A stretch of DNA of 64,000 bases from Halorussus marinus. Its GTDB lineage: Archaea > Halobacteriota > Halobacteria > Halobacteriales > Haladaptataceae. The stretch spans positions 248,001 through 312,000 of the forward strand of contig NZ_SBIV01000004.1 of the NCBI RefSeq assembly GCF_004765795.1. The letters run 5' to 3'. The notes under the pieces are model-generated. The model worked only from the letters and a program-made list of their open reading frames with translations, did not search any database and had not been told where the DNA came from. Made by a program: the position numbers and the translations under genes. Positions 454 through 35,686 of the stretch are shown one piece after another (within the stretch, counting starts at the first letter, position 1; each line of letters starts with the position of its first letter).

Positions 454-454
454 C

Positions 455-13687: not shown

Positions 13688-14647
13688 ATGGCAATCGTTC
13701 CTTCCCCTCGCTCCATCTCACGCTTCGTACTTGACGTTACGGATAGGGTCCAAACGGACGGAAAATCAGGATTAACATGGGCGGGACTTCGAGCGTATCA
13801 GCGACTCTGCGTCGACAATTTTCCAGAGCTATTTGACTATCCATGGACAAATGCTTTTAAACGTGATTGGGATGTCCTTATTCTTCTTGACGCTTGTCGA
13901 CTTGACTTACTCCAAGACGTCGAAACCCAGTACGACTTCCTAAAAAATGCACAGCAAGATTCAGTGTATTCACCAAGTGGACTCTCGCATGGATGGATGG
14001 AAGCTACGATAACGGAAGATGTTATTAATACTATAATAAAATCCACGTATATTACTGGAAACCCTCACACAGAATTTGTTGAGATGACAAACCAGTTTGC
14101 TCAACTTGACGAAGCATGGCGTAATGACTGGGACGATAGTTTAGGAACAATTCCAGCGAGACCACTCACTAACCGTGCTATTTGGTATTGGCGGAACACG
14201 GATACTGACCGGATGATCGTCCACTATATGCAACCACACTTCCCCTCTATTCCGTGTATTGAGATAGGTTCTGAGTTGAGTATAGATAAAATTGGATCTG
14301 AATGGAAAAATAGCGTTTGGGATAGACTGCGAAAAAATGAACTCACTTATGAGCGGGTCTGGGACGCATATAAACAAAACTTAGAATATGTTCTCGATGA
14401 CGTCCAACTCCTCCTTGAAAATATTGACGCTCAACAAGTAGTAATCAGTGCAGACCACGGTAACGCTATCGGAGAATACGGTTTCTACGGCCATGGGAAG
14501 ATACCACTCACCTGCGTTAGAGAAGTTCCATGGTACGAAGTATCTGCCACAGATGATAGAACACACGAACCCCCGAAACCAAATCGGAACCCTGAGGATA
14601 GTGTCGGAACTAAATCTAAGCTACGCTCACTAGGTTACCTTGAATAA
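13688..14647 (+). CDS. Alkaline-phosphatase/sulfatase-superfamily protein (haloarchaeal AlkP-core type)
   Basis: LILLDACRLD, VHYMQPHFP, ISADHGNAIGEYGFYGH, C-terminal LRSLGYLE. Confidence 0.8.
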   Translation: MAIVPSPRSISRFVLDVTDRVQTDGKSGLTWAGLRAYQRLCVDNFPELFDYPWTNAFKRDWDVLILLDACRLDLLQDVETQYDFLKNAQQDSVYSPSGLSHGWMEATITEDVINTIIKSTYITGNPHTEFVEMTNQFAQLDEAWRNDWDDSLGTIPARPLTNRAIWYWRNTDTDRMIVHYMQPHFPSIPCIEIGSELSIDKIGSEWKNSVWDRLRKNELTYERVWDAYKQNLEYVLDDVQLLLENIDAQQVVISADHGNAIGEYGFYGHGKIPLTCVREVPWYEVSATDDRTHEPPKPNRNPEDSVGTKSKLRSLGYLE

Positions 14648-14652
14648 CCACC

Positions 14653-15777
14653 ATGAAATTGTCAGTTCTCCACTTAACTAATAATCTAAAAAGTGGAGCA
14701 ATTCCACACACTATTATTGAGCTCTCCCCACACCTCTCAAAAGAGTTCAACATATTTGCGGGCGGGCTTCTGGCAGGAAGTGATGCCCGAGTTAACGAAG
14801 AAGTAATTAATGAGTTAGAAGAGGTAGGAGTGACCCCACTACGATTCCAGTTTGACGTAAAACCGTTCTACAAGGCCATTCGTGAATTATATAATTCATT
14901 AGAATGTATAGATATATTACATACACATCTCGTCCGATCCGGCATCTTTGGGCGTGTTCTTGGCAATATCGCCGGTACACCCTGTATAGTTTCAACTGAA
15001 CAGTCTGTGCATACGGCTGACCAATACAATAAGAAACAGCGCTTTCTAAACAGTGTAACACTTCCACTCGCAGATTATGTAGTACCCATCTCATCAGCAG
15101 TAGAGAAATCGTTTAATTGGTGGGTGAAGTCAACGATACCTTCAAATCGTCGGAGAATTATTCACAATCCAGTTGATGGTAAAAAGATTCAATCATATCG
15201 TGAGGGGTCGATTGCTAGTCCAATTAGACCATTCATTTCGCAATCTTCACCGATTGTAGGTAGCGTAGGCAGACTTGCACCGGTAAAGAACCACGAACTT
15301 CTTCTGGACGCTGTTGCACCACTTACTGACCAGTATCCTGACCTTGGAGTCGTACTCGTCGGGGATGGTCCTCTTGAAGCAACTCTTCGTGAACAGGTGC
15401 AGCAGTTGGGTATAGAAGATTCGGTGCTATTTACGGGCCGAATCGAACGGAGTATGGTTTACACTCTCCTACACGAATTCGACGTGTTCGGAATGCCATC
15501 ACTCCACGAAGGACAGGGGATCGCGCTCTGTGAGGCGATGTGCGCTGGGACACCGATTGTAGCGTCAGATATCCCAGTATTTCGTGACATTCTCGGTGAC
15601 TCGGGACGACTCGTTGACTTCCATGCCGAAGACTGGTCGTCCGAACTTCGTCAAGCAATTTCGGAGAACGACGTAAGAGAGGATCTTCAAGTTCGCGCAC
15701 AAGAGAAATTTTCCCCGCAAAAGACAGCCGCCTTATATGAAGAAATATATAAAAACTCATTGAGGAACAGTGACTGA
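14653..15777 (+). CDS. Glycosyltransferase family 4
   Basis: VGRLAPVKNH, LVGDGPL, PSLHEGQGIALCEAM (Ex7E). Confidence 0.92.
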   Translation: MKLSVLHLTNNLKSGAIPHTIIELSPHLSKEFNIFAGGLLAGSDARVNEEVINELEEVGVTPLRFQFDVKPFYKAIRELYNSLECIDILHTHLVRSGIFGRVLGNIAGTPCIVSTEQSVHTADQYNKKQRFLNSVTLPLADYVVPISSAVEKSFNWWVKSTIPSNRRRIIHNPVDGKKIQSYREGSIASPIRPFISQSSPIVGSVGRLAPVKNHELLLDAVAPLTDQYPDLGVVLVGDGPLEATLREQVQQLGIEDSVLFTGRIERSMVYTLLHEFDVFGMPSLHEGQGIALCEAMCAGTPIVASDIPVFRDILGDSGRLVDFHAEDWSSELRQAISENDVREDLQVRAQEKFSPQKTAALYEEIYKNSLRNSD

Positions 15778-15787
15778 GGGGTTGTGA

Positions 15788-17239
15788 TTAACTTGAAATA
15801 ATATCTCGCAAGGATCTAATTATTAATGTGATCTCGTCTCTAGAAACACCACCGATACCATATAGTATTATAAAGTAAAGTACAGCCGATGAGAGAATGG
15901 TGAACCAAATATTCTCGATCCACAACTGTCTGGCCAGGATATACATGAGGATGGCCGCGGTTCCAATCTTATTGACACCGGGAAAATGACTGTGAATTCC
16001 TAATTTCGAGCGAGACCATAATAGGATCACTGACAATACTAGCAGATATGAAACAACCGTCGTGATTACTGCTCCGAATAAGCCGAGTATCGGGATGAGG
16101 ATAGCATTCAGGATGACGTTAATTACTGCGCCAGAGAACCGAATAGAGGCTATCCTCTTCGGGGATTCTGCCGCAAAAAACAAACTACTATAAAGACGAA
16201 TCAGACTCCAAAGTGCTATGCCTATCCCGAGAGCAGGCAAAAGGTTCGCTGCCTGGACTGCGATTGACTCAGGTGCGATTAATCTTAGCAGAGACTCTCC
16301 TACAAGGAGGAATCCCAAGATTGAGGGGACACAAAGCGTTAGAAAATACCGCACGCCAGAGTTGAGGTATTGAATCGCCCTCTGACTTTCTCCGTCTTCC
16401 CAGAGGTTACTAAATTCGGGGAAAAATGAATTATTCAGCGGGAGTGCGAACAGGAGTATGAGGTTAGAAACTTTGTATGCAGTAGTGTAAACACCAACTG
16501 CGGTCGGCCCAAGGAAATAGCCAATGAGAAGTCGATCTGCACGGCTTAGAAATCCGCTCGAAACCTGACTAATCATAAATAGTGCTGAGTAATCAAATAT
16601 ACCTGGAATAGTTTGGAATTTAGGTACAGTGATTCCGATTCTCCGAATGACATCCGCCTGTAAAATAAGGAAAAAACAAATTTCTATGCCAATGATAGCA
16701 GTAACGACATCAGATAAGGATCCTGACATTATTACAACAATATAACTCACCATGCCTATCGTCACATACGTTTTCAAACCGTCTATGATCGAATAGAGTT
16801 TCAAAAACCTAGACGACTTGTAATAGTTTTTGACTATTCTGTTTAGGATACTAAGTGGCACAAGAACTGAACCCATCTGATACATTGCAGTATACTCTGT
16901 GTCTCCTAACGTCAGAGTTGAGATCTGACTTGAGTAAAAATAAAGAATCGCAGATATAGCGAACCCTATTAATGCAACAAAAGCTAATACGTCAAAATAT
17001 ATAATACATTTTTCTTTTTTATCTGTGCATCGCTGGAAATATCTGATGAGACCAGCATGGAGCCCTAGCCCAAATATTCCTGCAAATAAATTTGTGACGA
17101 CAAGGAGCTGAGCGTAGGCTCCATAGGCGCTGGTACCGAGATAAAATGTGATAATGGGTATGAAGAAAATACCACGTCCTTTTTGTGCTATCTTAACAAC
17201 TGTAGAAACAATAACATCTGATATTATCTTATCTTTCAT
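15788..17239 (-). CDS. Oligosaccharide flippase (Wzx/MOP superfamily)
   Basis: About 14 TM segments; YLGTSAYGAY, DRLLIGYFLGPTAVGVYTTAYKV, LNAILIPILGLFGA. Confidence 0.88.
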   Translation of the reverse strand: MKDKIISDVIVSTVVKIAQKGRGIFFIPIITFYLGTSAYGAYAQLLVVTNLFAGIFGLGLHAGLIRYFQRCTDKKEKCIIYFDVLAFVALIGFAISAILYFYSSQISTLTLGDTEYTAMYQMGSVLVPLSILNRIVKNYYKSSRFLKLYSIIDGLKTYVTIGMVSYIVVIMSGSLSDVVTAIIGIEICFFLILQADVIRRIGITVPKFQTIPGIFDYSALFMISQVSSGFLSRADRLLIGYFLGPTAVGVYTTAYKVSNLILLFALPLNNSFFPEFSNLWEDGESQRAIQYLNSGVRYFLTLCVPSILGFLLVGESLLRLIAPESIAVQAANLLPALGIGIALWSLIRLYSSLFFAAESPKRIASIRFSGAVINVILNAILIPILGLFGAVITTVVSYLLVLSVILLWSRSKLGIHSHFPGVNKIGTAAILMYILARQLWIENIWFTILSSAVLYFIILYGIGGVSRDEITLIIRSLRDIISS

Positions 17240-18668
17240 TTTTATTTCTATAATATATAAAAATAATAGGAGAAAGTAATAATAAATGGTTCGAAATCAA
17301 CCAGAGAGCATTATTACCTAACTCTCCAGAGGCTACCGAGGCAAGACAGACACTGTACACAAGTAAAAAAACAGGAGAGTGGCGGTTCTTTACGAGAGTC
17401 TGGTAGAGAAGTCGAAGTGTGAACCCAAATAAGAGTGCTCCAACAATGATAGCAACGAGGCCACCATCAACGTATAACCGACCAATCATTCCGGGAGGTC
17501 TTCCACCATTTGCATCTGGACGGAATATTCTTCGAATTAATGAACCCACCGTAAGTACCGGTTTATCGGGCCAGACTGATCGAGGAATATAGTTGAGTGG
17601 AACTCGGAAAACAAATGTCCCCCAGAAGTACCCAATCTGTTCCGGAACAATTGATACTGTTACGAGGAGGTTATCTAAGTGACTATTATGGATGCCGAAG
17701 GTCAATATTTCGATGAGCCTGGCAGTATCGAACGACCCCGTTAGATCTCCCCCACTACGAAGACCACCCGAAACGACCGTACCGATTCCGATAAGTACGC
17801 CGAGCACTGGGAGTGACAACTGCTTCACTCGACGGTGTAAGCGATCAGCAGTGAAGTGGATATGACCCGACTTCGTTTCGAGAACGGGATATATATGCAC
17901 GTAGTACATCATAATAACTGAGATTAATATTATCAGAATAACCTGTCCGCGACCTCCTAATAGGAAGAAGAAACCAGAAATAGGAATGAGTGGAAGTAAG
18001 TGCGCGATCCCTGTTCGATTCCCGTCAATAAGCGTCCCAGTTATCCAAACAAGATAACCAATGTACATCGAACGGGCACCCAACTTGAAATGCGTCGCTC
18101 CATCGAACACGTTACTTCGCGGTTCCATCGTCGTATAGAGATATAAGAGGTTCCAATCAAGTGCAGACGCCACGAGTAGGATGTAGGACAACGTACCAAA
18201 GACCATGTACAGTAATCCAGCACGGCGGAACATCGTTCCGTCGTGGTCCCCGGAATCAGAAAAGAAAGTAGGTACCGTAATCCACCGCTCGATTTTAAAG
18301 TAATAGCCAATCAGCAACATCCCGTAGAATAGCACGTATAGTACTGAAACAATGAAAAACGCCGTAGAAAACTCCCAAGAAACCCACTTAGGATATCTAA
18401 AGTAGGGGTCTTGGAGATACACACGATCGAATATCGCTACGGTGGTCATGAACATAAATATTGAATAAAATACAATTGGTTCGAAGATATCGAACGTACC
18501 TCGAATGAGAGAAACAACGGTCGGAATCGCACAAACTAGAAAGAGTAATGCAATCAGCACAGATTGTAAGCCAAAGAAAAAGGAAAGGAGACCGCTAAGT
18601 GTACCGACTACTACGGCTACAAGTGCGACAGACACGTTCCGGTATTTGCCCTCCACAGCTGTATTCAT
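17229..18668 (-). CDS. Wzy-like oligosaccharide repeat-unit polymerase
   Basis: Polytopic with a large late loop containing IPRSVWPDKP and GRLYVDGG; LLGGRG; overlaps the flippase start. Confidence 0.7.
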   Translation of the reverse strand: MNTAVEGKYRNVSVALVAVVVGTLSGLLSFFFGLQSVLIALLFLVCAIPTVVSLIRGTFDIFEPIVFYSIFMFMTTVAIFDRVYLQDPYFRYPKWVSWEFSTAFFIVSVLYVLFYGMLLIGYYFKIERWITVPTFFSDSGDHDGTMFRRAGLLYMVFGTLSYILLVASALDWNLLYLYTTMEPRSNVFDGATHFKLGARSMYIGYLVWITGTLIDGNRTGIAHLLPLIPISGFFFLLGGRGQVILIILISVIMMYYVHIYPVLETKSGHIHFTADRLHRRVKQLSLPVLGVLIGIGTVVSGGLRSGGDLTGSFDTARLIEILTFGIHNSHLDNLLVTVSIVPEQIGYFWGTFVFRVPLNYIPRSVWPDKPVLTVGSLIRRIFRPDANGGRPPGMIGRLYVDGGLVAIIVGALLFGFTLRLLYQTLVKNRHSPVFLLVYSVCLASVASGELGNNALWLISNHLLLLSPIIFIYYRNKNER

Positions 18669-18718
18669 TGAGCGTCCTTGGTTAGTAACATGCTTGTTTC
18701 TAGGAATACTGTTTCTAA

Positions 18719-19885
18719 CTACGTGGCAAGGGATTCGAGCAATTTCTCATATCGTTCGACATAGCGTCCCATAGAGTACTCCTGAACAATATGTTCGCGC
18801 CCAGAAGTCCCAAGATCAGTCGCATACCCGGGGTTTTCGATGAGCGTTCCTAATGCTTGCGTTATCGATTGGGCATTTCCAGGTTCGACAAGTAATCCCG
18901 TTTCACCGTCTTGAACGACCTCGCTAGTGCCACCGACGTCAGTAGCAACGACAGGACGCTCCATGGCGAGAGCCTCCCGTACAGCACCGGGTATCCCTTC
19001 ACCAAACGACGGCAGCACAAACACGTCAAGGTCGTCGAGAAACGTGGGCATGTCTTCAACCCAACCGACAAAGGTCACGATATCATCTATTCCCTTTTCC
19101 TTTACTCTATTCTCAAGTCGTTGTTTATATGGGCTATCACTGACATTTGGTGGCTTACCAGCAATTCGCAGTTCGATACTCATGCCATTTTTGTACAGAT
19201 CTTCAATTGCTTCGATGAGATACTCAATTCCCTTCCTTTCGGAAAGCACAGCAGCAGTTCCAATCACTGTCGGGAATTCCCCAGGACTTGGTTGTTTTGA
19301 TGGAGAAAACTCATCCACATCTATTCCTTTATGGAAAAAAGTGAATTTATTACTATAAGTATTTTGTTGTCTATTTGTAAATACTTGGTCCGCTTGCTCT
19401 TCGTACTCCATGAATACAGTATCTGCGACTCGTAGTCCCAGTTCATTCAGATATGCCATTTTACCCTTTGATTGGAGTCCGAGCCCGATATTCCAGATGA
19501 TAGATGCATCTACAACGAATGTATTTGGGACGAGAGTAAGGACTTCACGAATGTTTTTACACCATATAACATCAGATTTCTTAAGTAAATATTTAGCCTC
19601 AACGTTAAATTGGAAAATCCGAGCCCCTGTTTTCATCACCTTAGCGGGTGAGAACGAAAGTAGCTCTCGATTATATGTGTCTAATATCCCACGAAAGGGA
19701 ACGATTTCGACTTCGATTCCTTGTTCTGCTGCACGTTGGCATAACTCATCAGAAGACTGCGAAAGAACAATTGGAAGAAACTTGTCTCGATCAATTGATG
19801 TTAGTAATCGGAGGAGCATCTGCGATGCACCACCAAATGATTCGTAAGCAGTGTGGAAAAAAAGGACGGTCGTACGGTCACTCAT
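18719..19885 (-). CDS. Glycosyltransferase family 4
   Basis: GGASQM, RKGIEYLIEA, PSFGEGIPGAVREALA, TDVGGTSEVV; start at MSDRTT (19885). Confidence 0.92.
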   Translation of the reverse strand: MSDRTTVLFFHTAYESFGGASQMLLRLLTSIDRDKFLPIVLSQSSDELCQRAAEQGIEVEIVPFRGILDTYNRELLSFSPAKVMKTGARIFQFNVEAKYLLKKSDVIWCKNIREVLTLVPNTFVVDASIIWNIGLGLQSKGKMAYLNELGLRVADTVFMEYEEQADQVFTNRQQNTYSNKFTFFHKGIDVDEFSPSKQPSPGEFPTVIGTAAVLSERKGIEYLIEAIEDLYKNGMSIELRIAGKPPNVSDSPYKQRLENRVKEKGIDDIVTFVGWVEDMPTFLDDLDVFVLPSFGEGIPGAVREALAMERPVVATDVGGTSEVVQDGETGLLVEPGNAQSITQALGTLIENPGYATDLGTSGREHIVQEYSMGRYVERYEKLLESLAT

Positions 19886-20031
19886 TGTAATGGCTCCTCT
19901 GCACCTGTAATACTTTACTTTAAGGATTTGAGTCGATGACTCACCCATCTGAATATCGTTACGTCTAAATCCCGTTAGTTGGTTTAATGCTAGCTGAACG
20001 CTTAGACAAACCCACCTAAAATCGCTGACTC

Positions 20032-21483
20032 ATGAATTCTCCTAACATCGTACTAGTGGTGATGGATACTGCCTGCGCTAATGAAATAATACCACAAAAT
20101 GCACCGAATATAACGGATATCGCAAAGTCAGGAACCCAATTCTCAAACACATTTGCTACTGCTCCATGGACACTTCCTTCCCATGCAGGGCTCTTCACTG
20201 GAACTTACTCATCGAAGCATGGCGCACATGCAGGCCACAAACAACTGAACGGAAGGTTGGCAACACTTGGAGAAACCTTCCATTCCGCATCATACGAAAC
20301 CATTGCAATTTCGAATAATACGTGGATCAACGACGAGTTTGGATTTGGGCAGGGATTCAAGACGTTCTACAAGACATGGCAATACCTCCAGTCGGACGTG
20401 GATCTCACAGAAACTATCCGTAAAACCGAAGGGTGGGGGAAAATCCAAGCCGTTGCTTCAGAAATTATCGGAGGAAATCCTTTCATCAATTTCGTGAACG
20501 CAGCATACCGAAAGTTCGTGCGAAAAAGCGACGATTACGGCGCGAAGCGAACCAACCGGTGGATTTCCAACTGGCTCGACGACCGCGACACCCACCGACC
20601 GTTCTTACTCTTCGTGAACTACCTCGAACCGCATCTCGAATACCAGCCGCCGAAGGCACACGCCGAGCGGTTCCTCCCGGACGGCTGTCCCTTCGAGGAA
20701 GCGATGGAGGTCCCACAGGACGCCTGGGGGTACATCGCAGGGAACGTTGAAATGTCCGAAAGTGACTTCGAGATACTTCGCGCACTGTACCGAGCCGAGA
20801 TCTCGTATCTGGACCAGCGAATTGGAGAACTGCGTGACGAACTGATAGAGAGGGGTGAGTGGGAAGACACCGTGTTCGTCGTCACGGGTGACCACGGTGA
20901 AAACATAGGAGACCACGGTCTCATGGATCACCAGTACTGCCTCTACGATACGCTGCTCCACGTTCCGCTGGTCATCAACGGCGGCCCCTTCGAAGGCGGC
21001 GGAACCGTCGACGACCTCGTTCAACTCGTGGACCTCGCACCGACGCTACTGGACGTCGCGGACATCGACGCACACGAGATGCGAGCCCAGTTCCAAGGGC
21101 AATCGTTCCACCCGGACGCGGACCCGACCCGCGACCACGTAATCGCGGAGTACATGGCTCCCCAACCATCGATGGACGCGCTCGAAAAACGCGTCGGGAC
21201 ACTCCCCGAATCGGTGCGAACCTACGACCGCTCGCTTCGCGCAATTCGGACGGAAGACCACAAACTCATACGCGGTTCGGACGGGTCGCGAGAGTGCTAC
21301 CGAATTGGTGAGGATCCGAAGGAGACGACCGACTGTAGCAACGAGGATCCCGACTGGGCGTCCACGCTCGAAGCCGACCTCGACGACTGGCTCGGTTCGT
21401 TCGAACACGCCACCGTCGATGGATCGGTCGCGATGAAAGACGACACGAAACGACAACTCGAGGATCTCGGGTACCTTCAGTGA
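20032..21483 (+). CDS. Sulfatase-family protein
   Basis: PNIVLVVMDT, APWTLPSHAGLFTG, NYLEPHLEY, GDHGENIGDHGLMDH, LVDLAPTLL, LEDLGYLQ. Confidence 0.88.
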   Translation: MNSPNIVLVVMDTACANEIIPQNAPNITDIAKSGTQFSNTFATAPWTLPSHAGLFTGTYSSKHGAHAGHKQLNGRLATLGETFHSASYETIAISNNTWINDEFGFGQGFKTFYKTWQYLQSDVDLTETIRKTEGWGKIQAVASEIIGGNPFINFVNAAYRKFVRKSDDYGAKRTNRWISNWLDDRDTHRPFLLFVNYLEPHLEYQPPKAHAERFLPDGCPFEEAMEVPQDAWGYIAGNVEMSESDFEILRALYRAEISYLDQRIGELRDELIERGEWEDTVFVVTGDHGENIGDHGLMDHQYCLYDTLLHVPLVINGGPFEGGGTVDDLVQLVDLAPTLLDVADIDAHEMRAQFQGQSFHPDADPTRDHVIAEYMAPQPSMDALEKRVGTLPESVRTYDRSLRAIRTEDHKLIRGSDGSRECYRIGEDPKETTDCSNEDPDWASTLEADLDDWLGSFEHATVDGSVAMKDDTKRQLEDLGYLQ

Positions 21484-22574: not shown

Positions 22575-22798
22575 TTGCTGTTCGGTTGCTAGTATGCAGG
22601 TATCAACGTGACGATGTACATCAGTACTACACATGCTCTCGACTGGATTAGACCGCGCCACAGGAGGTGGACCCGGAATAGGAACCTTGATATGGAGTCA
22701 TTCAACTACGTCTTATCGTTGATTAATCACGGAACCCTCTACAGCAGGTATGGCCTACTGACCGTAGCTGTAGGAAACAAATGGACGGAGGATATTAC

Positions 22799-23776
22799 AT
22801 GAGCATTCTCATTACTGGTGGGTCAGGTTTCATCGGCTCTCACCTCGCCGATCACCTACTCGACGAGTCGAACGACAAAATACTCGTCTTGGACGACTTT
22901 TCGACCGGGGATGCCGGTAACCTCGACCACCTCGACACTGACCGAGTTGAGGTCCGCGACGGAGATATCCGTGACGCCGAGACCGTCCGCGAGACAGTCG
23001 GCGACGCCGACGCCGTCTACCACCTCGCAGCCGCAGTCGGCGTGCAGAACATCGTCGAGAATCCGCTTAACTCCCTGAAGACGAATCTCGAGGGAACCGA
23101 GAACGTCCTCGAAGCCGCAGCCGAAGACCGAACCCCGGTCTTCCTTGCCTCCTCGTCGGAGGTGTACGGCAAGTCCGAGGACGTACCTTTCAGCGAGTCC
23201 GACGACGCCGTCTACGGCCCGACGACGACGACTCGCTGGGGCTACGCGACCGCGAAGGCGACCGACGAATTCCTTGCCCTCGCCTACGCCGACGAACGTG
23301 ACCTTCCGGTCGTCATCGGTCGGTACTTCAACATCGTCGGCCCGCGACAGACCGGGCAGTACGGGATGGTGATCCCGACGTTCGTCGAGCAGGCGCTCGC
23401 GGGCGAGGACCTCACCGTCTACGGCGACGGCACCCAGACACGGAGTTTCACCCACGTCGCGGACGCGGTCGAACTCACCCACGAACTCCTTGAAAACGAG
23501 GACGCCCACGGTGAGATCTTCAACGTCGGCGCACCCGACCCGACGTCCATCAACGACCTCGCCGACCGCGCGATCGAGCTCACCGACTCCGACTCCGAGA
23601 TCACCCACGTTCCCTTCGAGAAGGTGTACGGCGAGGACTTCGAAGAGCCGGACCAACGTGAACCCGACGTGACGAAACTCCGTGAGACGCTCGGCTGGAC
23701 TCCGGAGGCGGACCTCGACAGGATCCTGACCGACGTGATCGACGAGCGAACCTCTGAGGAGGTCGTCGCGGAATGA
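22799..23776 (+). CDS. NAD-dependent nucleotide-sugar epimerase/dehydratase
   Basis: GGSGFIG, SSSEVYG, YATAK (YxxxK), RYFNIVGPRQ. Confidence 0.92.
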   Translation: MSILITGGSGFIGSHLADHLLDESNDKILVLDDFSTGDAGNLDHLDTDRVEVRDGDIRDAETVRETVGDADAVYHLAAAVGVQNIVENPLNSLKTNLEGTENVLEAAAEDRTPVFLASSSEVYGKSEDVPFSESDDAVYGPTTTTRWGYATAKATDEFLALAYADERDLPVVIGRYFNIVGPRQTGQYGMVIPTFVEQALAGEDLTVYGDGTQTRSFTHVADAVELTHELLENEDAHGEIFNVGAPDPTSINDLADRAIELTDSDSEITHVPFEKVYGEDFEEPDQREPDVTKLRETLGWTPEADLDRILTDVIDERTSEEVVAE

Positions 23777-25140
23777 CGGACCGTCCAGCAAACGACCTCC
23801 AGACGCGACTCCAAGACCGAGACGCGCGAATCGGCGTCATCGGCCTCGGCTACGTCGGTCTTCCCCTGAGCCTCGAATTCACGAATGCAGGCTACTCAGT
23901 CGCTGGTTTCGACATTGACACCGATCGCGTCGCGTCCCTCAAAGAGGGTCGGAGCTACGTAGACGACGTGTCCGACGACCAACTCTTGACTGCCCTCGAC
24001 GCGGGGTTCACGCCCGACGACGACCCATCCGTCGTCACCGACTGTGACGCCTACGTACTCGCAGTCCCGACGGGCATCTCGAACGGAGAACCCCAAATGG
24101 ACGCCGTCGAGAGTGCGACGCGGACGGTCGGCGAGCAGGCTGGCGACCGTGACACCCTCGTCGTCGTTAGCAGCACCGTCTATCCAGGCGCGACGAACGA
24201 GGTTGTCGAGCCCACCCTCCACGAGCACTGCGACCCCGACCGAACCCACATTGCGATGGTCCCCGAACGACTCAACCCCGGCGGGGGTGTCCCGGTCGAG
24301 GAGATTCCCCTCGTGGTCGGTGCGGACGACGAGACCGCTCGCACCGCTGCCTCCACGCTCTTCCAGGCGTTCGTCACGGACACGCACCCCGTCGATAGCG
24401 TGACGACCGCCGAACTGACGAAGACCCTAGAGAACACCTACCGGATGGTGAACACTGCACTCGTCAACGAGCTCACCGCGTTCGCCGAACGGTTCGACGC
24501 CGACGTCTGGAACGCCATCGAGGCCGCCTCGACCAAGCCGTTCGGCTTCCAGGCGTTCTATCCCGGTCCCGGCGTCGGCGGCCACTGCATCCCCATCGAC
24601 CCGCAGTTCCTCACGTGGCGGGCGTCCGAACTCGGCACCGAACTCTCGCTCGTCGACGAGGCCCAGCGCATCAACGAGTGGATGCCCTCGGTCGTGGTCG
24701 AGCGAATCGAGCATGTGCTCGCCGAGCGCGGCGTTGAGCCCTGCGAAGCCTCGATCGTCGCCCTCGGACTGGCATACAAAGCCGATGTCGGCGACACCCG
24801 CCGCTCGCCAGCGCTCGAGATCTCGGAGCGCCTCGACCACGACGGGAACGTCATCGCGGTCGACCCCCACGTGGACGCGGTCGAGAGCGACCTCGCAGTC
24901 GTCAAATCGACGGCCGAGGTTCCCCTTGAGGACGCGGACCTCGTCGTGCTCCTCGTCGATCACGAGGCATTCGATATAGACGCAATCACGGCTCGTACCC
25001 CATTGATATTTGACACGCGCGATGCCGTTTCGGTCGACAGTGATGCGGAAGTCGTCACGCTCGGCGATGAGTCCGCTGCACTGAAACAGTCCGTGAAACG
25101 ACGTGAGGAGGAGCAACTCAACTCGACTCCCCGTCGGTAA
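23773..25140 (+). CDS. Nucleotide-sugar dehydrogenase (UDP-N-acetylhexosamine 6-dehydrogenase, WecC/WbpA-like)
   Basis: GLGYVGLP, STVYPG, PERLNPG, KTLENTYR, GPGVGGHCIPIDP. Confidence 0.92.
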   Translation: MTDRPANDLQTRLQDRDARIGVIGLGYVGLPLSLEFTNAGYSVAGFDIDTDRVASLKEGRSYVDDVSDDQLLTALDAGFTPDDDPSVVTDCDAYVLAVPTGISNGEPQMDAVESATRTVGEQAGDRDTLVVVSSTVYPGATNEVVEPTLHEHCDPDRTHIAMVPERLNPGGGVPVEEIPLVVGADDETARTAASTLFQAFVTDTHPVDSVTTAELTKTLENTYRMVNTALVNELTAFAERFDADVWNAIEAASTKPFGFQAFYPGPGVGGHCIPIDPQFLTWRASELGTELSLVDEAQRINEWMPSVVVERIEHVLAERGVEPCEASIVALGLAYKADVGDTRRSPALEISERLDHDGNVIAVDPHVDAVESDLAVVKSTAEVPLEDADLVVLLVDHEAFDIDAITARTPLIFDTRDAVSVDSDAEVVTLGDESAALKQSVKRREEEQLNSTPRR

Positions 25141-25191
25141 CTTTGATCCGGGTTTCGTTCGATAACCGTCTCCATTTCTCGATTAGCGCGC

Positions 25192-26628
25192 CTACTTCTC
25201 GCGCTCGTCCGCTCTAATTTCGAGGAGGTCCTCGAACACCTGCCAGAACTGCCGGACCACGATCTCTACGTCGAACCACGGCGACTGCTTGCGGATGTAC
25301 TCAATGTCGTACCTGATCTTCTCGGCCGGTTCTTTCCCCGTCGCGTCGTTGATCTGCGCGAGCCCGGTCAGTCCCGGTTTGACGAACCATCGCTGTCGCC
25401 AGATGTTCACCTCAGATTCGTATTCAGGCTCCAGTTCGGTTATCGCAGGGCGAGGTCCGACGACGCTCATATCGCCGACGAGGATCGACCACAGCTGGGG
25501 GATCTCGTCCAAATGGGTCTTCCGGAGGAACTCGCCAAGGGGCGTCTTCCGATCTCGTTCGATAGCTAAACTCACCTTCTCCTCTGGCTCCGGCTTGAGC
25601 GTCCGGAACTTGTATATCTGAAAGGTATCTCCGAATCGATACGTCCGCTCTTGCGTGTAGAACACGGGACCGTGTCCCTCGATTTTGATGGCAAGCGCAA
25701 TGAGCAGGATAATCGGAGAGAGGGCCAGCAGCGCCGTTCCGGCGAACGCCACGTCGAACAGTTGCTTCAGCAACCGGTCCTGCCAGTCCCACGGTTCAAG
25801 GTCGATCTCCACGACGGAGTCGTCCGCATCGCCCGGCGTCAGCACGGTGTCGGAGTGCTTGCGGTGGACCATCGCCCTGACGCCGTGTTCGTGGCAGGCG
25901 TGGAGCGCGCCGAAGAATTCGGCCCGGTCGGTCCGGTCGAACGCCAACACTGCCGTATCGACATCGTACTCAACGAAGACCTCGTCGAGTTGCGAAAGGC
26001 CGTCGAGCCGTTCGACGGCGTCCGGCGACCATCCGCTCCCGTCAGCGACGACGGGGTTCTCGGCGAGTCGGGGGTCCGTCTCGGTCTCATACGGACTCGG
26101 CGGCGCGACGTAGCCGACGACCGGCATGTCGATGGCTTCGAGTACCTCTAGTATCTCCTCGATGTCGTCGCCGACTACCACAGCACGTTTGCTACCTGTA
26201 GGCCGACGACCGATTGCTACGAACCACGGCGGAAGAACGACTAGCATTGTCATCACGGCCACCCCAAGCGTAGCGCGTGGCAGTCGATACGAGTAGTTTG
26301 CATAGCTGATTGCTGCGAGTGCGAATCCCGAGAGAACCACTCGCTTCTGGACGAGCAAGACCGTATCCAGCAACCGCCGTGGACGAGGCTTGAAAAGCGG
26401 AACGAAACTCGCCGTGACCATGGCAACTGTAGTTAGAAGGGCTATCACTAGATCGCCCCCTCCTAGTACAACGGGCGATAGTCGTCGCACGAGGGGGATG
26501 TGAGTCGTCACCTCCGATTGGACGACGGGGAGGTTACCGACGAGGACGCCGAGCACAGCCGCGGCGACGGTTCCCCCGACGCTCACGACGCGGTACCGGT
26601 GACCGGAGACCATCACGCTATCCCCCAC
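25192..26628 (-). CDS. Bacterial-type polyprenyl-phosphate phosphoglycosyltransferase (WcaJ/WbaP-like sugar transferase)
   Basis: N-terminal TMs, then KQLFDVAF, YKFRTL, FLRKTHLDEIPQLWSILVGDMSVVGPRP, VKPGLTGLAQ; start may be 26613. Confidence 0.92.
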   Translation of the reverse strand: MGDSVMVSGHRYRVVSVGGTVAAAVLGVLVGNLPVVQSEVTTHIPLVRRLSPVVLGGGDLVIALLTTVAMVTASFVPLFKPRPRRLLDTVLLVQKRVVLSGFALAAISYANYSYRLPRATLGVAVMTMLVVLPPWFVAIGRRPTGSKRAVVVGDDIEEILEVLEAIDMPVVGYVAPPSPYETETDPRLAENPVVADGSGWSPDAVERLDGLSQLDEVFVEYDVDTAVLAFDRTDRAEFFGALHACHEHGVRAMVHRKHSDTVLTPGDADDSVVEIDLEPWDWQDRLLKQLFDVAFAGTALLALSPIILLIALAIKIEGHGPVFYTQERTYRFGDTFQIYKFRTLKPEPEEKVSLAIERDRKTPLGEFLRKTHLDEIPQLWSILVGDMSVVGPRPAITELEPEYESEVNIWRQRWFVKPGLTGLAQINDATGKEPAEKIRYDIEYIRKQSPWFDVEIVVRQFWQVFEDLLEIRADEREK

Positions 26629-26682
26629 ACCCAGTCAGCTTAAAAGCTATGAAGTACCGCCTCTGTATAGTGATTTAATACC

Positions 26683-27669
26683 TCACGACTTCCGCACGAG
26701 CGGTTCGTACCAGTCTCTATTCTCTTGATACCACTCCGTAAACTGCTCGACGCCCTCTCGAATTGTCGTCGTCGGCTCGTAATCGAGCAGCTCTCTCGCC
26801 TTCGAGACGTCGGCGTGGGTGTGTTCGGCATCGGCGTCGTTGCGCTCGTCGTACACCAGATCTAGCTCCGGCGCGAGCTGGTCTCGGATTTCTTCGGCCA
26901 GCACTCGAATCTCGATGTTGTCCGTACTGCCGATATTCATCGCCTCGCCATCCGCCGCGTTCGTCTCCAGCAGCGTCCCGTTCGCACGCACCACGTCGTC
27001 GATGTACGTAAAGTCCCGGGTTTGGGTCCCTTCTCCGTAAATAACGGGCGGCTCGCCGTTCATACACCGCGAGACGAAGTTCGAGATGGCCATATTCGGG
27101 CGCATCCGCGGGCCGTACACCGTGAAGTACCGCAGCGACACCGTCGGCAGCCCGTACACCTCGTTGTACACGCGCGCGTACTGTTCCTCGGCGAGCTTCG
27201 ACGCGCCGTAGGGGCTCACGGGCGTCGTCGGATGCTCCTCGTCGTACGGTAGGTAGTTGGGCTTGCCGTACACCGACGAGGAACTCGCGACGACCACGCG
27301 CGTGGTGTCGGAATTGCGGGCTGCCTCCAGTACGTTCAGCGTCCCATCGACGTTGATCTCGTTGACCTTCTGGGGCTGCTCGACGCTCGTCCGAACGCCC
27401 GCCTGCGCGGCCTGGTGGAAGACGAAGTCAGCGTCGCCGACGTACTCGTCGATAAGCTCCTCATCACGAATATCCCCCTGAATCAGTTCGTAACTACCGT
27501 CACTCTCCTCGGCTGCACGCCGACCCTGTTCGACGTTGTGTTCCTTGATGCCGAGATCGTAGTACGGCTCAAAGTTGTCGAGCGCGACTACGTCGTGGCC
27601 GTTATAGGCAAACTGCTCAGCGAGGTGACCACCGATGAAGCCCGCGCCGCCCGTCACGAGGATCTCCAT
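26683..27669 (-). CDS. NAD-dependent epimerase (UDP-glucose/UDP-glucuronate 4-epimerase-like)
   Basis: GGAGFIG, HQAAQAGVR, SPYGASK, LRYFTVYGPRMRPNMA. Confidence 0.92.
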   Translation of the reverse strand: MEILVTGGAGFIGGHLAEQFAYNGHDVVALDNFEPYYDLGIKEHNVEQGRRAAEESDGSYELIQGDIRDEELIDEYVGDADFVFHQAAQAGVRTSVEQPQKVNEINVDGTLNVLEAARNSDTTRVVVASSSSVYGKPNYLPYDEEHPTTPVSPYGASKLAEEQYARVYNEVYGLPTVSLRYFTVYGPRMRPNMAISNFVSRCMNGEPPVIYGEGTQTRDFTYIDDVVRANGTLLETNAADGEAMNIGSTDNIEIRVLAEEIRDQLAPELDLVYDERNDADAEHTHADVSKARELLDYEPTTTIREGVEQFTEWYQENRDWYEPLVRKS

Positions 27670-27721
27670 TATGTTCGAGTCCCCGAATTCCCCTTACAAA
27701 AAGCCACCGAGTTTGTCACAG

Positions 27722-28480
27722 TCAGTTCACGGACGCCTCAACCGCGTCTGACTCATCTACTTCGATATCCTCACCACGCAACAACTTCTCGGCCTTCTCA
27801 CGGTCCTCGGGATAGCCAACATCGATGCGCCAGCCGTCCATCCGGATCGCGTCAATCGTCCGGCCGCTCTGGATTAGCAAATCGATTGCCTCGCTAATCT
27901 CGTACTCGCCCCGGTTCGACGGCTGCACTAGATGACAGGCGTGGAAGATAGCTGACGTAAACGTGTAGAAACCAGTCATCACGAGATTCGACGGCGGGTC
28001 GTCAGGCTTTTCGACAACATCAGTTATCTCGCCGTAATCGTTCGTGTCACAGACGCCGTACCGACCGGCGTCCTCGTAGGGCACCTCTTCGACCAGGAAG
28101 GCAGCATCCGCACGGTCCTCCTGCTGTCGGTTGACCACGTCGCCGAGGTTCGCGTCAAAGACGTTATCGCCGAGCATCAGCATGAAGTCGTCATCGATGT
28201 GCTCCTCGACAGTCAGCAGGGCATGGGCGAGCCCCTTCTGTTCGCGCTGGTGCGCGTAGGTCATCGGAATCCCATCGAATTCATCGCCATAGTGGTCGAT
28301 AATGTCCTGTTTCCGGTAGCCGACGACGACGACGAATTCGTCGGCGCCGAGCTCGGCCAACTGCTCAAAGCAGCGGGTTAGAATGGGCTTTCCGTCGACC
28401 TCAACCATCCCCTTGGGCTTGTCCTCGGTCAGCGGCCGCAGGCGAGTTCCCTCGCCGGCCGCGAGTACGACTGCTTTCAT
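27722..28480 (-). CDS. aglF: UTP--glucose-1-phosphate uridylyltransferase AglF
   Basis: MKAVVLAAGEGTRLRPLTEDKPK, VEKPDDPPSNLVMTGFY, RGEYEISEAI; haloarchaeal AglF pattern. Confidence 0.85.
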   Translation of the reverse strand: MKAVVLAAGEGTRLRPLTEDKPKGMVEVDGKPILTRCFEQLAELGADEFVVVVGYRKQDIIDHYGDEFDGIPMTYAHQREQKGLAHALLTVEEHIDDDFMLMLGDNVFDANLGDVVNRQQEDRADAAFLVEEVPYEDAGRYGVCDTNDYGEITDVVEKPDDPPSNLVMTGFYTFTSAIFHACHLVQPSNRGEYEISEAIDLLIQSGRTIDAIRMDGWRIDVGYPEDREKAEKLLRGEDIEVDESDAVEASVN

Positions 28481-28807
28481 GTACTGTTGGCCCTCACTGG
28501 AGTATTAAATAGCTTTAGACTCAATGACGGTACCCTCTTTAGATGCGGGTTTCTATTCTTTGTCTCGACTGCGTGATCAACCACCACCTTGGCATACTGA
28601 GAGGGTGAGACAGGGTCGGCGAACCCGACAACAATCTCATGAGCGACGCGTATCTCGTCAGCCAAGCACTGCCGTTCTAGCTGGTCGAAGTATGCAGCGA
28701 GTCGCAAGATTCAAGCGGCTTGAGAGTTTTCGAGCCTCAATCGCAATTCTGCTAATATACCGGAATACTGCTCCGTGATGTTCAGGCTTTGGTAGTACGG
28801 AGTTACA

Positions 28808-29039
28808 GGCACTGTCTAGTTAAGCGATTCGTAGAAATATTGGCGTGAGAGTACCTCTCTAACCGGTGGTGGAGCAACACTATTCATGCACTGGGGCCGA
28901 GATGTTTGCCGAGCTGGTCGAATTGGGGCCGCTCAGGGATTCCCGGCTGTACGTCTCACTGTTCAGACACTGGTTTTGCTCCAAATGAGCTACGGTCATC
29001 GTCCTACCCGCTGGCGATTTTGCCTAACTAGACAGTGCC
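28808..29039. mobile_element. 232-bp non-autonomous IS6-type MITE
   Basis: Perfect 15-bp TIRs ggcactgtctagtta / taactagacagtgcc; 8-bp target duplication gagttaca at 28800-28807 and 29040-29047; no transposase. Confidence 0.93.
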
Positions 29040-29080
29040 GAGTTACACTTCGTAACGAAAATGATTATTCCCCAAGACGT

Positions 29081-31453
29081 CTATTCTTCCACACTAATGT
29101 TCCCGCCGTTCTCGACCGCCCGCTCGGACACCGAAACGCTCTGATCTCCGACCGAGTAGGTGCCGGGATACGAGACAGTCACCGAGAAAGTCCCGTTCTG
29201 GGTGGTCTCAACGCTCCGACGGTACTCGAAAGTGGTGTTTTCGATCTCAACGTCAGTTGAGACAGTCACGATTTCACCAGCGGGAGCCGTCCCGGTAATG
29301 TTCGCCCCAGGAACGAGCGCGAACGCCTTCACCGACCCGTCGTCGCTAGCGTACACCGTCCGATAGTGGCCGACACCCGGTGCACCGTCATCGCCCGCAC
29401 TCCCGAACCGGAAGTGAAGCCGGGAGTACATAATGTCAGACGGCACTTGTCCGGGAAGGTCGAGATCCTTCGTGATGACGAAACCGACCTGATCGTTGAG
29501 CCGCTGGTACTGTGCTTCGGAATTGTTCGCCGCGAGGAACGGCTCGTAGTTGTTATCTGCGAACCCGTAACTCCGCGCCTCCCCGTTCACGAAGTAGTTG
29601 TACATTCGGTTGCGACCCCACTTGCTCAACACGTAGTTCTCGGGAGACTCCAGTCCACGATGGTCGGCATAGGCGTTAATCGACTGGGCCGCCGCGTAGT
29701 TGTCGCTGCCAATCTTCACCTGCTCGTGACGGACGGTCGTCTGGACCGCGCCTGCACTTGTGACGAACAGGAACAATATAGCGAGCGTCGTAATCGTACT
29801 CCGACTGGGAAGTCCAAGCGACAGACTTTCGTCGGAACCGCCGCGAGACGACTTCGATTCGCCGTTCACGAACGCAGGCCAGCGGACGATATCCATCTTT
29901 GCCGCGAAGGCGACGAATCCCCAGCCGGCGAGGATGGCGAAGAAGGGCCCGAGCTCGCCGACGAACCGTCGCTGGAGCGCCGCCAGCACCAGAAAGTACC
30001 CGCCGTAGGTCACAACGACGAGCCACGAAGAGTGATTAGTACGGTACGCTCGCCAGCCGGCATAGATTAGCACTGGGAAACCGAGTACCCAAACGAACCC
30101 GAGTTCTAATAGCGGGCCGAGGAGCAGTTGAATTGGTCCACCACCGAACATAGAGCGGTTTTCAGCTATTCCCGTCCGGAAAAGCAGGAAATCAAGCCGC
30201 TGCATCAACACGTCCATATACGACGGTAAAAATAGCTGTAACACTGCTAACCCACCTAGTGCGCCTGCGACCTCGGTCGTCCCGAAAGCAAATGCAGGCA
30301 ACTCCCTGCGATAGAACGCCTCCCCAATAAGCGACACCCCAACGACCCCGACAAGCACCAGCGCGGGCGAGTATGTGACTACCTCTGAGTGCCATCCGAA
30401 TGCGGTATGGGCAAGATGAGAGAGTACCGATGCGAACGCTAGCCCCGCAACGATCGGTGCGTTCGGGGCCAGCGACGACTCGCCCGCTCGGACGTAAGCC
30501 ACGGTCCGAACAGCAACGAAAACCCCCAGTGCGCCGACCAACAGCGGACCGGCCTCCCAGGCCATCACCTGTCCGGCGACCGCGACGCCGAGCACGCCCG
30601 ACGCGAGCCACGTCCGCGTATCCTCAAGTTCAGGGTGTCCCACATCCGCCAGTTCTACCAGCGCGAGGGCAGTCAGCGCAAGCCATGGGTAGTCGAACGC
30701 GTGGTGGTCGGAGAACCCAAGCCCCGTCCGGTAGGCAAAGGCGGGAATCACCCCGAGCAGCAGTACTGACGCGATACCAACACGGCGGTCGCCGGTTACC
30801 CGGACTGCAATAGCGTACACGAGGACACCGACGACGAGCGCCGACAACACGGGATACCACGCCAGCACCGCGCCGCTGGCGTCCGCACCACCCAGGGCGT
30901 TCGTCACCCACCACAGCGTCGCGACCATCAGCGGTTCGCCGTTCGCGACAGCACCGGGAAGATCCGAAAGTACGCTGAAGTCGAAAATACCGACCGCCTC
31001 GGCCGAGAGCTGGTCAACCCAGTAGCGGTAGTAGTAAGGATCGTTCGAGGAGAGCAGGACGCCGTCCGGGCGGAACACGTGACCCACAAAGTAGGCACGC
31101 ATTGCCGCAACGAACAGTAGTGCCCCGGCGAGCGCGCCAGCGGTCTCCCGCGACACGGAGGGAAGCCAGAGCGACGAGAACGCTGACCTGCTCAATTGAT
31201 CGCCATCGTCCGGTTCGTCGTCGCCGTCCAGACTCGCTCGGACAGCGTCCGGATCGACGACTTCGTACTCGCCGCCCGCTTTCGTTACGATGTCCCGCGA
31301 GACCAGCTCGCCGAAGGTTCCCGAGTCGAACGGTACGTCATCGAACGTCCACCCGTCGGCGCGCTCGTCTACCGCGAGGAGTTCGCGGAGGTCGGATTCG
31401 AGCTCCGGCTTCTCCGCGAGGAGATCGTCAGTCGCCTCGCGTACGTCAGTCAT
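29081..31453 (-). CDS. STT3/AglB-like GT-C oligosaccharyltransferase homolog with a non-canonical C-terminal motif
   Basis: SNDPYYY, GFSDHHAFD, TGIAE, QRRF, about 13 TM plus an external domain; WWDYG position reads VLSKWGRNRMYNYF; start at MTDVRE (31453). Confidence 0.82.
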   Translation of the reverse strand: MTDVREATDDLLAEKPELESDLRELLAVDERADGWTFDDVPFDSGTFGELVSRDIVTKAGGEYEVVDPDAVRASLDGDDEPDDGDQLSRSAFSSLWLPSVSRETAGALAGALLFVAAMRAYFVGHVFRPDGVLLSSNDPYYYRYWVDQLSAEAVGIFDFSVLSDLPGAVANGEPLMVATLWWVTNALGGADASGAVLAWYPVLSALVVGVLVYAIAVRVTGDRRVGIASVLLLGVIPAFAYRTGLGFSDHHAFDYPWLALTALALVELADVGHPELEDTRTWLASGVLGVAVAGQVMAWEAGPLLVGALGVFVAVRTVAYVRAGESSLAPNAPIVAGLAFASVLSHLAHTAFGWHSEVVTYSPALVLVGVVGVSLIGEAFYRRELPAFAFGTTEVAGALGGLAVLQLFLPSYMDVLMQRLDFLLFRTGIAENRSMFGGGPIQLLLGPLLELGFVWVLGFPVLIYAGWRAYRTNHSSWLVVVTYGGYFLVLAALQRRFVGELGPFFAILAGWGFVAFAAKMDIVRWPAFVNGESKSSRGGSDESLSLGLPSRSTITTLAILFLFVTSAGAVQTTVRHEQVKIGSDNYAAAQSINAYADHRGLESPENYVLSKWGRNRMYNYFVNGEARSYGFADNNYEPFLAANNSEAQYQRLNDQVGFVITKDLDLPGQVPSDIMYSRLHFRFGSAGDDGAPGVGHYRTVYASDDGSVKAFALVPGANITGTAPAGEIVTVSTDVEIENTTFEYRRSVETTQNGTFSVTVSYPGTYSVGDQSVSVSERAVENGGNISVEE

Positions 31454-34044: not shown

Positions 34045-34144
34045 TGGGTATCTCGACGGTTTATATCGGGTGTACGTAAATCTAAGTGTTCGAATGCGGT
34101 GAACGGCGTATCTCTCTGTTCGTGTGTGAAACCAACGACTGGCG

Positions 34145-34160
34145 CGTTTAGTACTAAACG
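34145..34160. promoter_or_regulatory. Perfect 16-bp palindrome, candidate operator
   Basis: cgtttagtactaaacg, about 100 bp upstream of the PGF-CTERM gene. Confidence 0.4.
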
Positions 34161-34218
34161 AGTTATGTCTATCAGGTTCGACAGTCCCGCAAAAATAATC
34201 GCGCGAAGGGAGAACTGC

Positions 34219-35595: not shown

Positions 35596-35672
35596 TGGTC
35601 TCACAAGCATCCGCGTCGGATGCTTGACTATCTCCGTATTTAGATAGGACTGATAAATAACTATAGGCCTAA

Positions 35673-35686
35673 TATCAACGCTGATA
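35673..35686. promoter_or_regulatory. TATCA-N4-TGATA palindrome upstream of the archaellin
   Basis: tatcaacgctgata, just upstream of an AT-rich TATA-like tract (ttatttat on the minus strand, about 35653-35660). Confidence 0.55.

Follow-up and report, generated by a model that had tools for sequence, protein, structure and literature searches.

We analysed a window of 64,000 nt from contig NZ_SBIV01000004.1 of Halorussus marinus, whose genome is labelled G000 below. The window contains a glycan locus at positions 13688-31453, in which family profiles place together a phosphoglycosyltransferase (PGT), a Wzx-type flippase, a Wzy-type polymerase and a paralog of STT3/AglB that lacks the WWD motif, which we call STT3L. 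We consider it likely, from the sequence evidence described below, that PGT, Wzx and Wzy build a polymer linked to dolichol pyrophosphate (Dol-PP), and that STT3L transfers this chain to an N-terminal Asn without a need for the N-X-S/T sequon. The best explanation of the locus is a second N-glycosylation pathway, which is independent of AglB. This proposal rests on family assignments and residue conservation, from which we infer the carrier, the sugars, polymerisation and transfer. Published work is given by PMC number and is cited from excerpts throughout.

STT3L has the fold of AglB, with a GT-C membrane domain and a C-terminal globular domain. In a Foldseek search with a structural model of the protein (predicted local distance difference test, pLDDT, 86.5), the top matches were AglB, STT3 and PglB, and the best was A. 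fulgidus AglB (7e9s, E 2e-21, TM-score 0.62). With the AglB model TIGR04154, STT3L scored 146 against a cut-off of 450, as compared to 950 bits for the true AglB of the same genome, which is encoded on contig C1. Because canonical AglB was present in 200 of 201 Halobacteria genomes, STT3L is an additional enzyme. That STT3L might be the only AglB of its genome, or a degenerate one, was ruled out by the canonical gene elsewhere and by the conserved catalytic residues. The metal ligands and catalytic residues of AglB have been set out previously (PMC8342417). Residue mapping placed D47, D161, H163, E360 and R426 of the A. fulgidus enzyme at D138, D249, H251, E431 and R496 of STT3L, which were kept in 149, 150, 142, 149 and 150, respectively, of 150 diverse representatives drawn from a 50%-identity library. 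The Thr of the TIXE motif was not conserved in the STT3L family; its Glu (E431) was kept. The closest named relatives of STT3L belong to Halorussus.

In AglB, WWDYG and the DK/MI motif form the Ser/Thr pocket (PMC8342417). The position of WWDYG aligned to KWGRNR in STT3L and has the family consensus SxW[GS]x[NS]R, in which the second Trp is retained. The first Trp has been lost, as has the Asp in most cases, and conservation has been gained at R616 and N619 (145 and 150 of the 150 representatives, respectively). This mapping rests on a MAFFT alignment of the C-terminal segments, because hhalign of STT3L against its own genome's AglB spanned the membrane part only; in the DK/MI region, the downstream helix of STT3L aligned only loosely with that AglB. 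WWD was found in none of 217 STT3L homologs, and anywhere in the sequence in 1 of the 150 representatives; the pattern xWxxxR was matched by 216 of the 217. Loss of the motif with an intact catalytic centre is what one would expect for a transferase that is still active but has ceased to read the hydroxyl at +2.

Two further features of the family were observed. Residues 1-75 of STT3L (31229-31453, minus strand) form a small N-terminal helix/strand domain ahead of the first membrane helix. This domain has no Pfam match, carries an invariant SGxFG motif, is found in nearly all family members and is missing from AglB; possibly, it serves as a link between the enzyme and a partner in the cytoplasm. 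At the other end, 27 of the 120 STT3L homologs listed (e.g., P0017, P0021 and P0022) carry an additional LamG/concanavalin-like domain (PF13385), which may serve to bind glycans.

A preference of STT3L for an N-terminal Asn predicts that such a residue is found in the surface-layer (S-layer) proteins of genomes with STT3L and in no others. To test this prediction, we examined proteins with the surface-glycoprotein signal peptide TIGR04207 in 49 genomes with STT3L and PGT and 50 genomes with neither, which were picked, one to four per genus, before the sequences were seen. We used 143 of the 223 TIGR04207 matches, namely the best per genome and the next best with long frames; G018 is represented by a long-frame second match. 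The mature start was set by a fixed anchor calibrated on Halobacterium numbering. This anchor was missing in 8 of the 143 proteins, of which a second anchor rescued 7; G065 was dropped, leaving 49 versus 49 genomes. The position windows were chosen after the first 60 proteins, and +2 was fixed by the Halobacterium precedent.

An Asn at predicted mature position +2 was found in 24/49 genomes with STT3L and PGT and in 1/49 with neither. The corresponding values were 35/49 versus 5/49 for positions +1 to +3 and 41/49 versus 8/49 for +1 to +4, and no enrichment of Asn with STT3L was seen at +5 to +8. Counted per genus, Asn at +2 was present in 22/37 versus 1/33, and the difference was also seen within 14 mixed genera (11/19 versus 1/24; permutation, 40/20000). 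Ser/Thr was missing two residues on for 33 of the 41 Asn residues in +1 to +3, which thus lie outside N-X-S/T. Eighteen of the 23 genomes with only one of the two genes had a TIGR04207 match; read by eye, Asn in +1 to +3 occurred in 4 of 6 with STT3L only, as compared to 2 of 12 with PGT only. The N-terminal Asn follows STT3L, not PGT. In the Halorussus marinus genome, all four TIGR04207 proteins start AAA/N, and three of them were not part of the 49-versus-49 recount.

Two of these four proteins end in PGF-CTERM-like tails. The proteins at G000:C6:283914 and C10:4890 are large surface proteins (~1400-1600 residues) with a common C-terminal tail unlike PGF-CTERM. Genome G079 retains a 61-residue remnant of STT3L only (C1:590431-590613), and its best S-layer-type protein has no N-terminal Asn, as expected for loss of the pathway.

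The distribution of STT3L was examined in the 201 Halobacteria genomes; kin in this sample are not independent, for which within-genus tests correct only partly. STT3L was counted as present at a profile match above ~200 bits, with five candidates scored per genome; the count takes in truncated or split copies (G164, G109, G018 and G013) and leaves out G160 and G079. STT3L was found in 108 genomes and PGT in 117, with both in 101, STT3L only in 7, PGT only in 16 and neither in 77, and none of 20000 within-genus permutations equalled this concordance. When the two genes were on the same contig, they were within 50 kilobases (kb) of each other in 85 of 94 pairs. We also examined 80 named STT3L loci with flanks of up to 10 kb, 60 of them with full flanks. 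Since a PGT lay within 10 kb of STT3L in 48 of the 80 (41 of the 60), their linkage is not due to chance. Wzx was found in 11, uppP in 8 and glmS in 15 of these 80 loci.

A Wzy-type gene, defined as a match to PF04932 or TIGR04370, models that miss divergent Wzy, was found in 69/101 genomes with both genes, 13/16 with PGT only, 0/7 with STT3L only and 2/77 with neither; when on the same contig as STT3L, it was no more than 60 kb away in 49 of 58 genomes. The respective values for UppP were 83/101, 11/16, 2/7 and 4/77. The earlier note on this DNA had looked to co-occurrence of PGT, wzy and a WWD-less STT3 across Halobacteria; it is seen in these genomes and extends to UppP.

Genomes G154, G156, G196, G055 and G052 carry PGT without STT3L, and several such genomes hold 3-7 Wzy_C-type genes. 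No TIGR04207 protein was found in 4 of the 16 PGT-only genomes, and these lineages are possibly polysaccharide-walled. G112 has STT3L and PGT and no PF13440 match; a fused ABC membrane/ATPase exporter lies among its glycan genes (L109:728-2626), which suggests an ABC-type flippase variant of the system.

The assignment of 17229-18668 as a Wzy-type protein was upheld by three approaches. Its TIGR04370 score was 69.8 bits (cut-off 40). In ESM Atlas, its feature neighbours carry PF14296 (0.98-0.99), which occurs on 19-29% of cluster members, and a structure search returned PF14296 clusters at a TM-score of 0.72. VIA-align with an AlphaFold model (pLDDT 80) placed RodA/FtsW on top (Z 9.2, 9.1 and 8.3) and also returned WaaL (Z 6.1 over 260 residues); such Z values are modest and attainable by chance among helical proteins. 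Foldseek found no match to the model in PDB at E<=0.001. Among 15 close relatives, several are annotated as polymerases of repeat units or O-antigen, and a PRxxWPxKP motif is conserved across the protein and these relatives. Polymerase and ligase are not separable by this fold alone, which is common to WaaL, and the protein is best described as a putative polymerase. A profile made from its relatives matched only 1 of the 80 related loci, because such polymerases are very divergent; Pfam Wzy_C added 8 among 30 scanned proteins.

A glycan with the expected properties has long been described in Halobacterium (Hbt.) salinarum. The repeating glycan on Asn-2 is built on a pyrophosphate carrier and is selectively blocked by bacitracin, and replacement of Ser-4 by Val, Leu or Asn leaves Asn-2 glycosylation standing, for which the excerpted review gives no explanation (PMC2952790). 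The glycan has 10-15 (or 10-20) repeats (PMC11407970, PMC2952790). As of that 2010 review, a single OST (oligosaccharyltransferase) gene had been found in this species (PMC2952790); the role of AglB for the Asn-2 glycan was left open in the text of PMC6591318, and "virtually nothing is known" about assembly of the glycan in the words of PMC11407970. A sentence on this matter in PMC12624080 opens with "Whereas nothing is known".

We found that Hbt. salinarum has an STT3L ortholog, annotated in strain NRC-1 as "hypothetical protein VNG_0005H"; the ortholog was found in a search from a named Halobacterium locus, and the NRC-1 protein belongs to its cluster. The NRC-1 neighbourhood is represented here by genome G023, in which STT3L shares 98% identity with this ortholog. 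The gene order in G023 is csg, an open reading frame, an ABC pair, STT3L, glmS, two NTP-transferases and PGT. The product of csg (TIGR04216, 1181 bits) has the mature start A-N-A-D, in which the Asn is kept and the sequon is not. Small contigs of G023 hold wzx, GT4 glycosyltransferase genes and sulfatase-fold genes, and a Wzy_C-like protein (ESM Atlas 0.99) that was missed by Pfam is encoded beside two GT4s and an ABC exporter (L092:2037-3953). The AT-rich region of NRC-1 begins at VNG_0011C (PMC10264941), which, from its position, we infer to be the PGT. In Hbt. salinarum, the repeating-unit glycan on Asn-2 would be the product of VNG_0005H together with the PGT nearby. In a tblastn search of the Halorussus marinus genome, G023 csg matched at the signal peptide only.

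Several observations weigh against the proposed pathway. In the Halorussus marinus genome, the S-layer-type genes sit on contigs other than that of STT3L. Among the 49 genomes with STT3L and PGT, 14 have no Asn in +1 to +3 and 8 have none in +1 to +4 in the proteins used, and the cleavage sites are predictions by a fixed sequence rule. The scan of window proteins brought up no chain-length regulator of the Wzz type, and no dedicated genome search was made for one. The glycan genes of G023 are scattered over small contigs, one with an ABC exporter able to flip a finished chain, and profile search gave no BacA match in this genome. TIGR04370 matched in 0 of 5 named STT3L genomes, and neither PF04932 nor TIGR04370 matched in 32 of the 101 genomes with both genes. 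Finally, Haloarcula hispanica carries STT3L, although its reported S-layer glycans are short, an N-trisaccharide and an O-disaccharide only, with exopolysaccharide (EPS) tied to other gene clusters in the same account (PMC9943897); the released-glycan high-performance liquid chromatography used there may overlook a long polymer.

It is possible that STT3L glycosylates the N-terminal Asn with single units or short oligosaccharides, and that the Wzy polymer is a separate EPS or varies among species. This would agree with the short glycans of Haloarcula hispanica and with the genomes in which no Wzy-type gene was detected, which include all 7 with STT3L only; Wzy also tracks PGT more tightly than STT3L, as the PGT-only genomes show. 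We consider this explanation unlikely, since the Asn-2 glycan of Hbt. salinarum is built on a pyrophosphate carrier and reaches 10-15 (or 10-20) repeats, the Wzy_C-like protein of G023 lies beside two GT4s, and Wzy and STT3L are close neighbours in most genomes where they share a contig. A different possibility is that STT3L acts in the manner of WaaL or an LCP ligase and joins the polymer to a lipid or to some acceptor other than Asn, and that the Asn pattern arose in another way, e.g., through S-layer lineages inherited along with the locus. The loss of the Ser/Thr pocket means a remodelled acceptor site, and an S-layer-type gene lies no more than 62 kb from STT3L in 10 of the 49 genomes (no more than 10 kb in 4), so that co-transfer can make some of the association. 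However, the genes are unlinked or on other contigs in the remaining 39, the excess of Asn persists when counted per genus and inside the mixed genera, and STT3L shows almost no variation at the two acidic residues by which AglB activates the Asn amide, which makes a non-Asn acceptor quite improbable. The earlier note had proposed transfer to a surface protein or lipid, like O-antigen ligation. Because the evidence narrows the acceptor to the mature N-terminal Asn of S-layer-type proteins, a protein acceptor is favoured, and N-glycosylation by a GT66 enzyme is most likely, not WaaL-type ligation.

Very unlikely, in our view, is that the locus makes a free exopolysaccharide or a wall polysaccharide, with STT3L as a passenger or a chain-releasing hydrolase. 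Polymer machinery can work alone, as indicated by the 16 of 201 genomes with PGT and no STT3L, several of which have more than one Wzy-type gene; AglB has a side activity as a lipid-linked oligosaccharide hydrolase (PMC8342417), and EPS production occurs in haloarchaea (PMC9943897). In contrast, PGT was present in 101 of the 108 STT3L genomes, mostly adjacent to STT3L, the catalytic residues of STT3L are conserved, and the N-terminal Asn is mostly missing in PGT-only genomes. Polymer transfer to an N-terminal Asn by STT3L thus remains our preferred explanation.

The earlier note had also listed the genes of 13688-31453. Family profile searches recovered every named gene in its place (Table 1), including the wzx and wzy genes (15788-17239 and 17229-18668), which share 11 bases, and no GT2 initiator was found among the window proteins scanned or clustered, as the note had stated. 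Of its two sulfatase-fold genes, 20032-21483 (plus strand) is a clear case, and 13688-14647 has a weak PglZ-type match only; homologs of the latter were found in 7 of the 80 related loci. Reading such sulfatase-fold proteins as sulfotransferases follows the analogy of Agl30/Agl31 (PMC11980604).

Table 1. Glycan locus of Halorussus marinus and features in its surroundings (positions in the 64,000-nt window).
Feature	Position	Strand	Evidence
glmU-like 3' end and glmS, amino-sugar supply	1-2245	+	family profile
DUF4330 gene (6712-7194) and usual downstream partner (6083-6712)	6083-7194	-	PF14221, 99.8 bits
IS4-family transposase bounding the low-GC cassette	12058-13230	+	NF033592, 189 bits (cut-off 115)
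Alkaline-phosphatase-superfamily (PglZ-like) protein, candidate glycan-modifying transferase	13688-14647	+	weak Pfam match, E 0.003
GT4 glycosyltransferase, low-GC cassette	14653-15777	+	family profile
Wzx-type flippase	15788-17239	-	PF01943 (E 1e-18) and PF13440, above cut-off
Putative Wzy-type repeat-unit polymerase, about 11 transmembrane segments	17229-18668	-	TIGR04370, ESM Atlas, VIA-align
GT4 glycosyltransferase, low-GC cassette	18719-19948	-	family profile
Sulfatase-fold protein, probable glycan sulfotransferase	20032-21483	+	PF00884, E 1e-36
GT4 glycosyltransferase, conserved partner	21477-22574 (or 22661)	-	orthologs at 400-500 bits in several related loci
NDP-sugar epimerase/dehydratase	22781-23776	+	PF01370, E 2.5e-58
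Nucleotide-sugar 6-dehydrogenase (uronic acid donor)	23773-25140	+	TIGR03026, 335 bits (cut-off 190)
WcaJ/WbaP-type PGT, initiator on polyprenyl-phosphate carrier	25192-26613	-	PF02397, 190 bits (cut-off 27)
NDP-sugar 4-epimerase, TviC/GalE-like	26683-27669	-	PF01370, E 1e-65; TviC model below cut-off; substrate not fixed
aglF-type UTP-glucose-1-phosphate uridylyltransferase	27722-28480	-	NF041313, 444 bits (cut-off 400)
STT3L, WWD-less STT3/AglB paralog, 790 residues from ATG at 31453	29081-31453	-	PF02516 and PF18079, above cut-off

The PGT has the N-terminal membrane part of the WcaJ/WbaP type and is the sole PF02397 match in its genome. Its sugar is not assignable, because it scores below the cut-offs of the WcaJ, WbaP and TIGR03025 models. 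Likewise, the models TviB, TviC and UDP-ManNAc dehydrogenase all remained below cut-off for the sugar-nucleotide enzymes of the window, and since every specific model did so, the sugars are not assignable; the repeat unit may contain aminouronic acids. The guanine-plus-cytosine (GC) content is 43.7% in 13688-19948 and 59.6% in 20032-31453, as compared to 66.9% genome-wide, and the glycan block is flanked by the IS4 transposase and an IS1595 remnant. A uppP/bacA gene lies ~1.6 kb upstream of the window (G000:C4:245541-246392). The aglB gene on contig C1 has GT2, flippase and sulfatase-fold genes nearby.

Three neighbours of STT3L recur among the 80 loci, namely DUF4330 (16 loci), its unannotated partner of ~160 residues (15 loci) and a VanZ-family gene (17 loci); examples lie at L029:17365-18489, L068:9348-9824 and L063:2965-3354. 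They are candidates for chain-length control or carrier handling. After STT3L, a block of lower GC content (32332-38768) encodes a PGF-CTERM surface protein with BGTF domains, an unusually long archaellin of 458 residues, a rhomboid-like membrane protein and a CetZ tubulin homolog.

Enzymes of the PGT family form a polyprenyl-pyrophosphate-sugar from a sugar-1-phosphate and polyprenyl-phosphate. In the proposed pathway, PGT would load a sugar-1-phosphate, presumably onto dolichol-phosphate, giving Dol-PP-sugar. The three GT4s, fed by GlmS/GlmU, AglF, the two epimerases and the dehydrogenase, would then complete an acidic repeat unit, which is probably sulfated by the sulfatase-fold proteins. 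Wzx would flip this unit and Wzy would polymerise it outside. STT3L, by means of its intact AglB-type metal and Asn-activating centre, would move the chain to an Asn of S-layer-type glycoproteins that lies one to four residues from the N terminus made by signal peptidase, with no Ser/Thr needed at +2; this acceptor rule is proposed because of the loss of the motif and the co-variation of the acceptor. UppP would recycle the Dol-PP. The low-GC cassette 13688-19948 would be an exchangeable "serotype" part, and STT3L, PGT and aglF the conserved core. The pathway in the earlier note, PGT-primed Dol-PP units polymerised by Wzx/Wzy and ligated by STT3, is thus supported by the co-occurrence and by the retained catalytic residues.

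The system resembles several known ones in part. STT3L shares with AglB (GT66; A. fulgidus AglB-L, PDB 7E9S/3WAJ; TIGR04154) the fold, the GND/DHH/TIXE-Glu/Arg set and the C-terminal L1 domain. It differs from AglB in having SxW[GS]x[NS]R in place of WWDYG, an extra N-terminal domain of ~75 residues and only 16% identity; furthermore, it is linked to PGT, Wzy and UppP (pyrophosphate carrier) instead of a dolichol-monophosphate (Dol-P) Agl cluster and coexists with canonical AglB. The Haloferax-type Agl cluster has the GT2 initiator AglJ and canonical aglB; the locus 13688-31453 has neither. With the Asn-2 glycan of Hbt. salinarum, the predicted product shares the pyrophosphate carrier, a repeat-unit polymer, an N-terminal Asn and independence of Ser-4; the repeat would differ, because the glycosyltransferase cassette is locus-specific. 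The bacterial Wzx/Wzy pathway for O-antigen or EPS (WbaP/WcaJ, Wzx, Wzy, UppP, WaaL) uses the same families of initiator, flippase, polymerase and carrier phosphatase and a variable low-GC cassette, whereas here the host is archaeal, a homolog of GT66 OSTs takes the place of WaaL as the last enzyme, and an Asn in a protein is predicted to receive the chain. In the Pgl system of Campylobacter (PglC, PglK, PglB), as proposed here, a PGT-initiated polyprenyl-pyrophosphate glycan is transferred to Asn by a GT66 enzyme; unlike here, the glycan does not undergo polymerisation, and PglB depends on the sequon and has retained WWDYG. The Agl5-Agl15 glycan of Haloferax volcanii is likewise an unexplained AglB-independent N-glycan (PMC8241124). 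An H. volcanii control genome had no PF02397, PF04932 or BacA match, and STT3L was rejected as the missing OST of the Agl15 pathway because this control is without PGT, Wzy_C and BacA; the control was not searched for STT3L itself.

Each of these enzyme families is already known, and databases automatically label STT3L proteins as STT3-domain proteins. In the open literature, we found no publication that names VNG_0005H or proposes the pathway; subscription papers, which could mention the paralog, were outside the scope of this search. The Asn-2 repeating-unit glycan is carried by the first non-eukaryotic N-glycoprotein described, and excerpts of reviews from 2010 and 2024 call its enzymes unknown. 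A specific gene, VNG_0005H, and a pathway can now be named for it in a genetically tractable organism, which is a likely answer to a decades-old puzzle of Halobacterium. More broadly, we regard it as fairly likely that a second N-glycosylation pathway, so far unrecognised, operates in approximately half of Halobacteria. In this pathway, a bacterial-type PGT/Wzx/Wzy line would make a "serotype" polysaccharide, and a GT66 subfamily would join it to protein by reading position, namely an Asn beside the free N terminus, in place of the sequon, with VNG_0005H as the long-sought second OST of Hbt. salinarum. If true, this subfamily would follow a new acceptor rule and would join O-antigen-style polymerisation to N-glycosylation, and it would offer a sequon-free, N-terminus-directed polysaccharide-conjugating enzyme for glycoengineering. 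It would also imply serotype-like surface variation among haloarchaea, relevant to virus receptors and mating.

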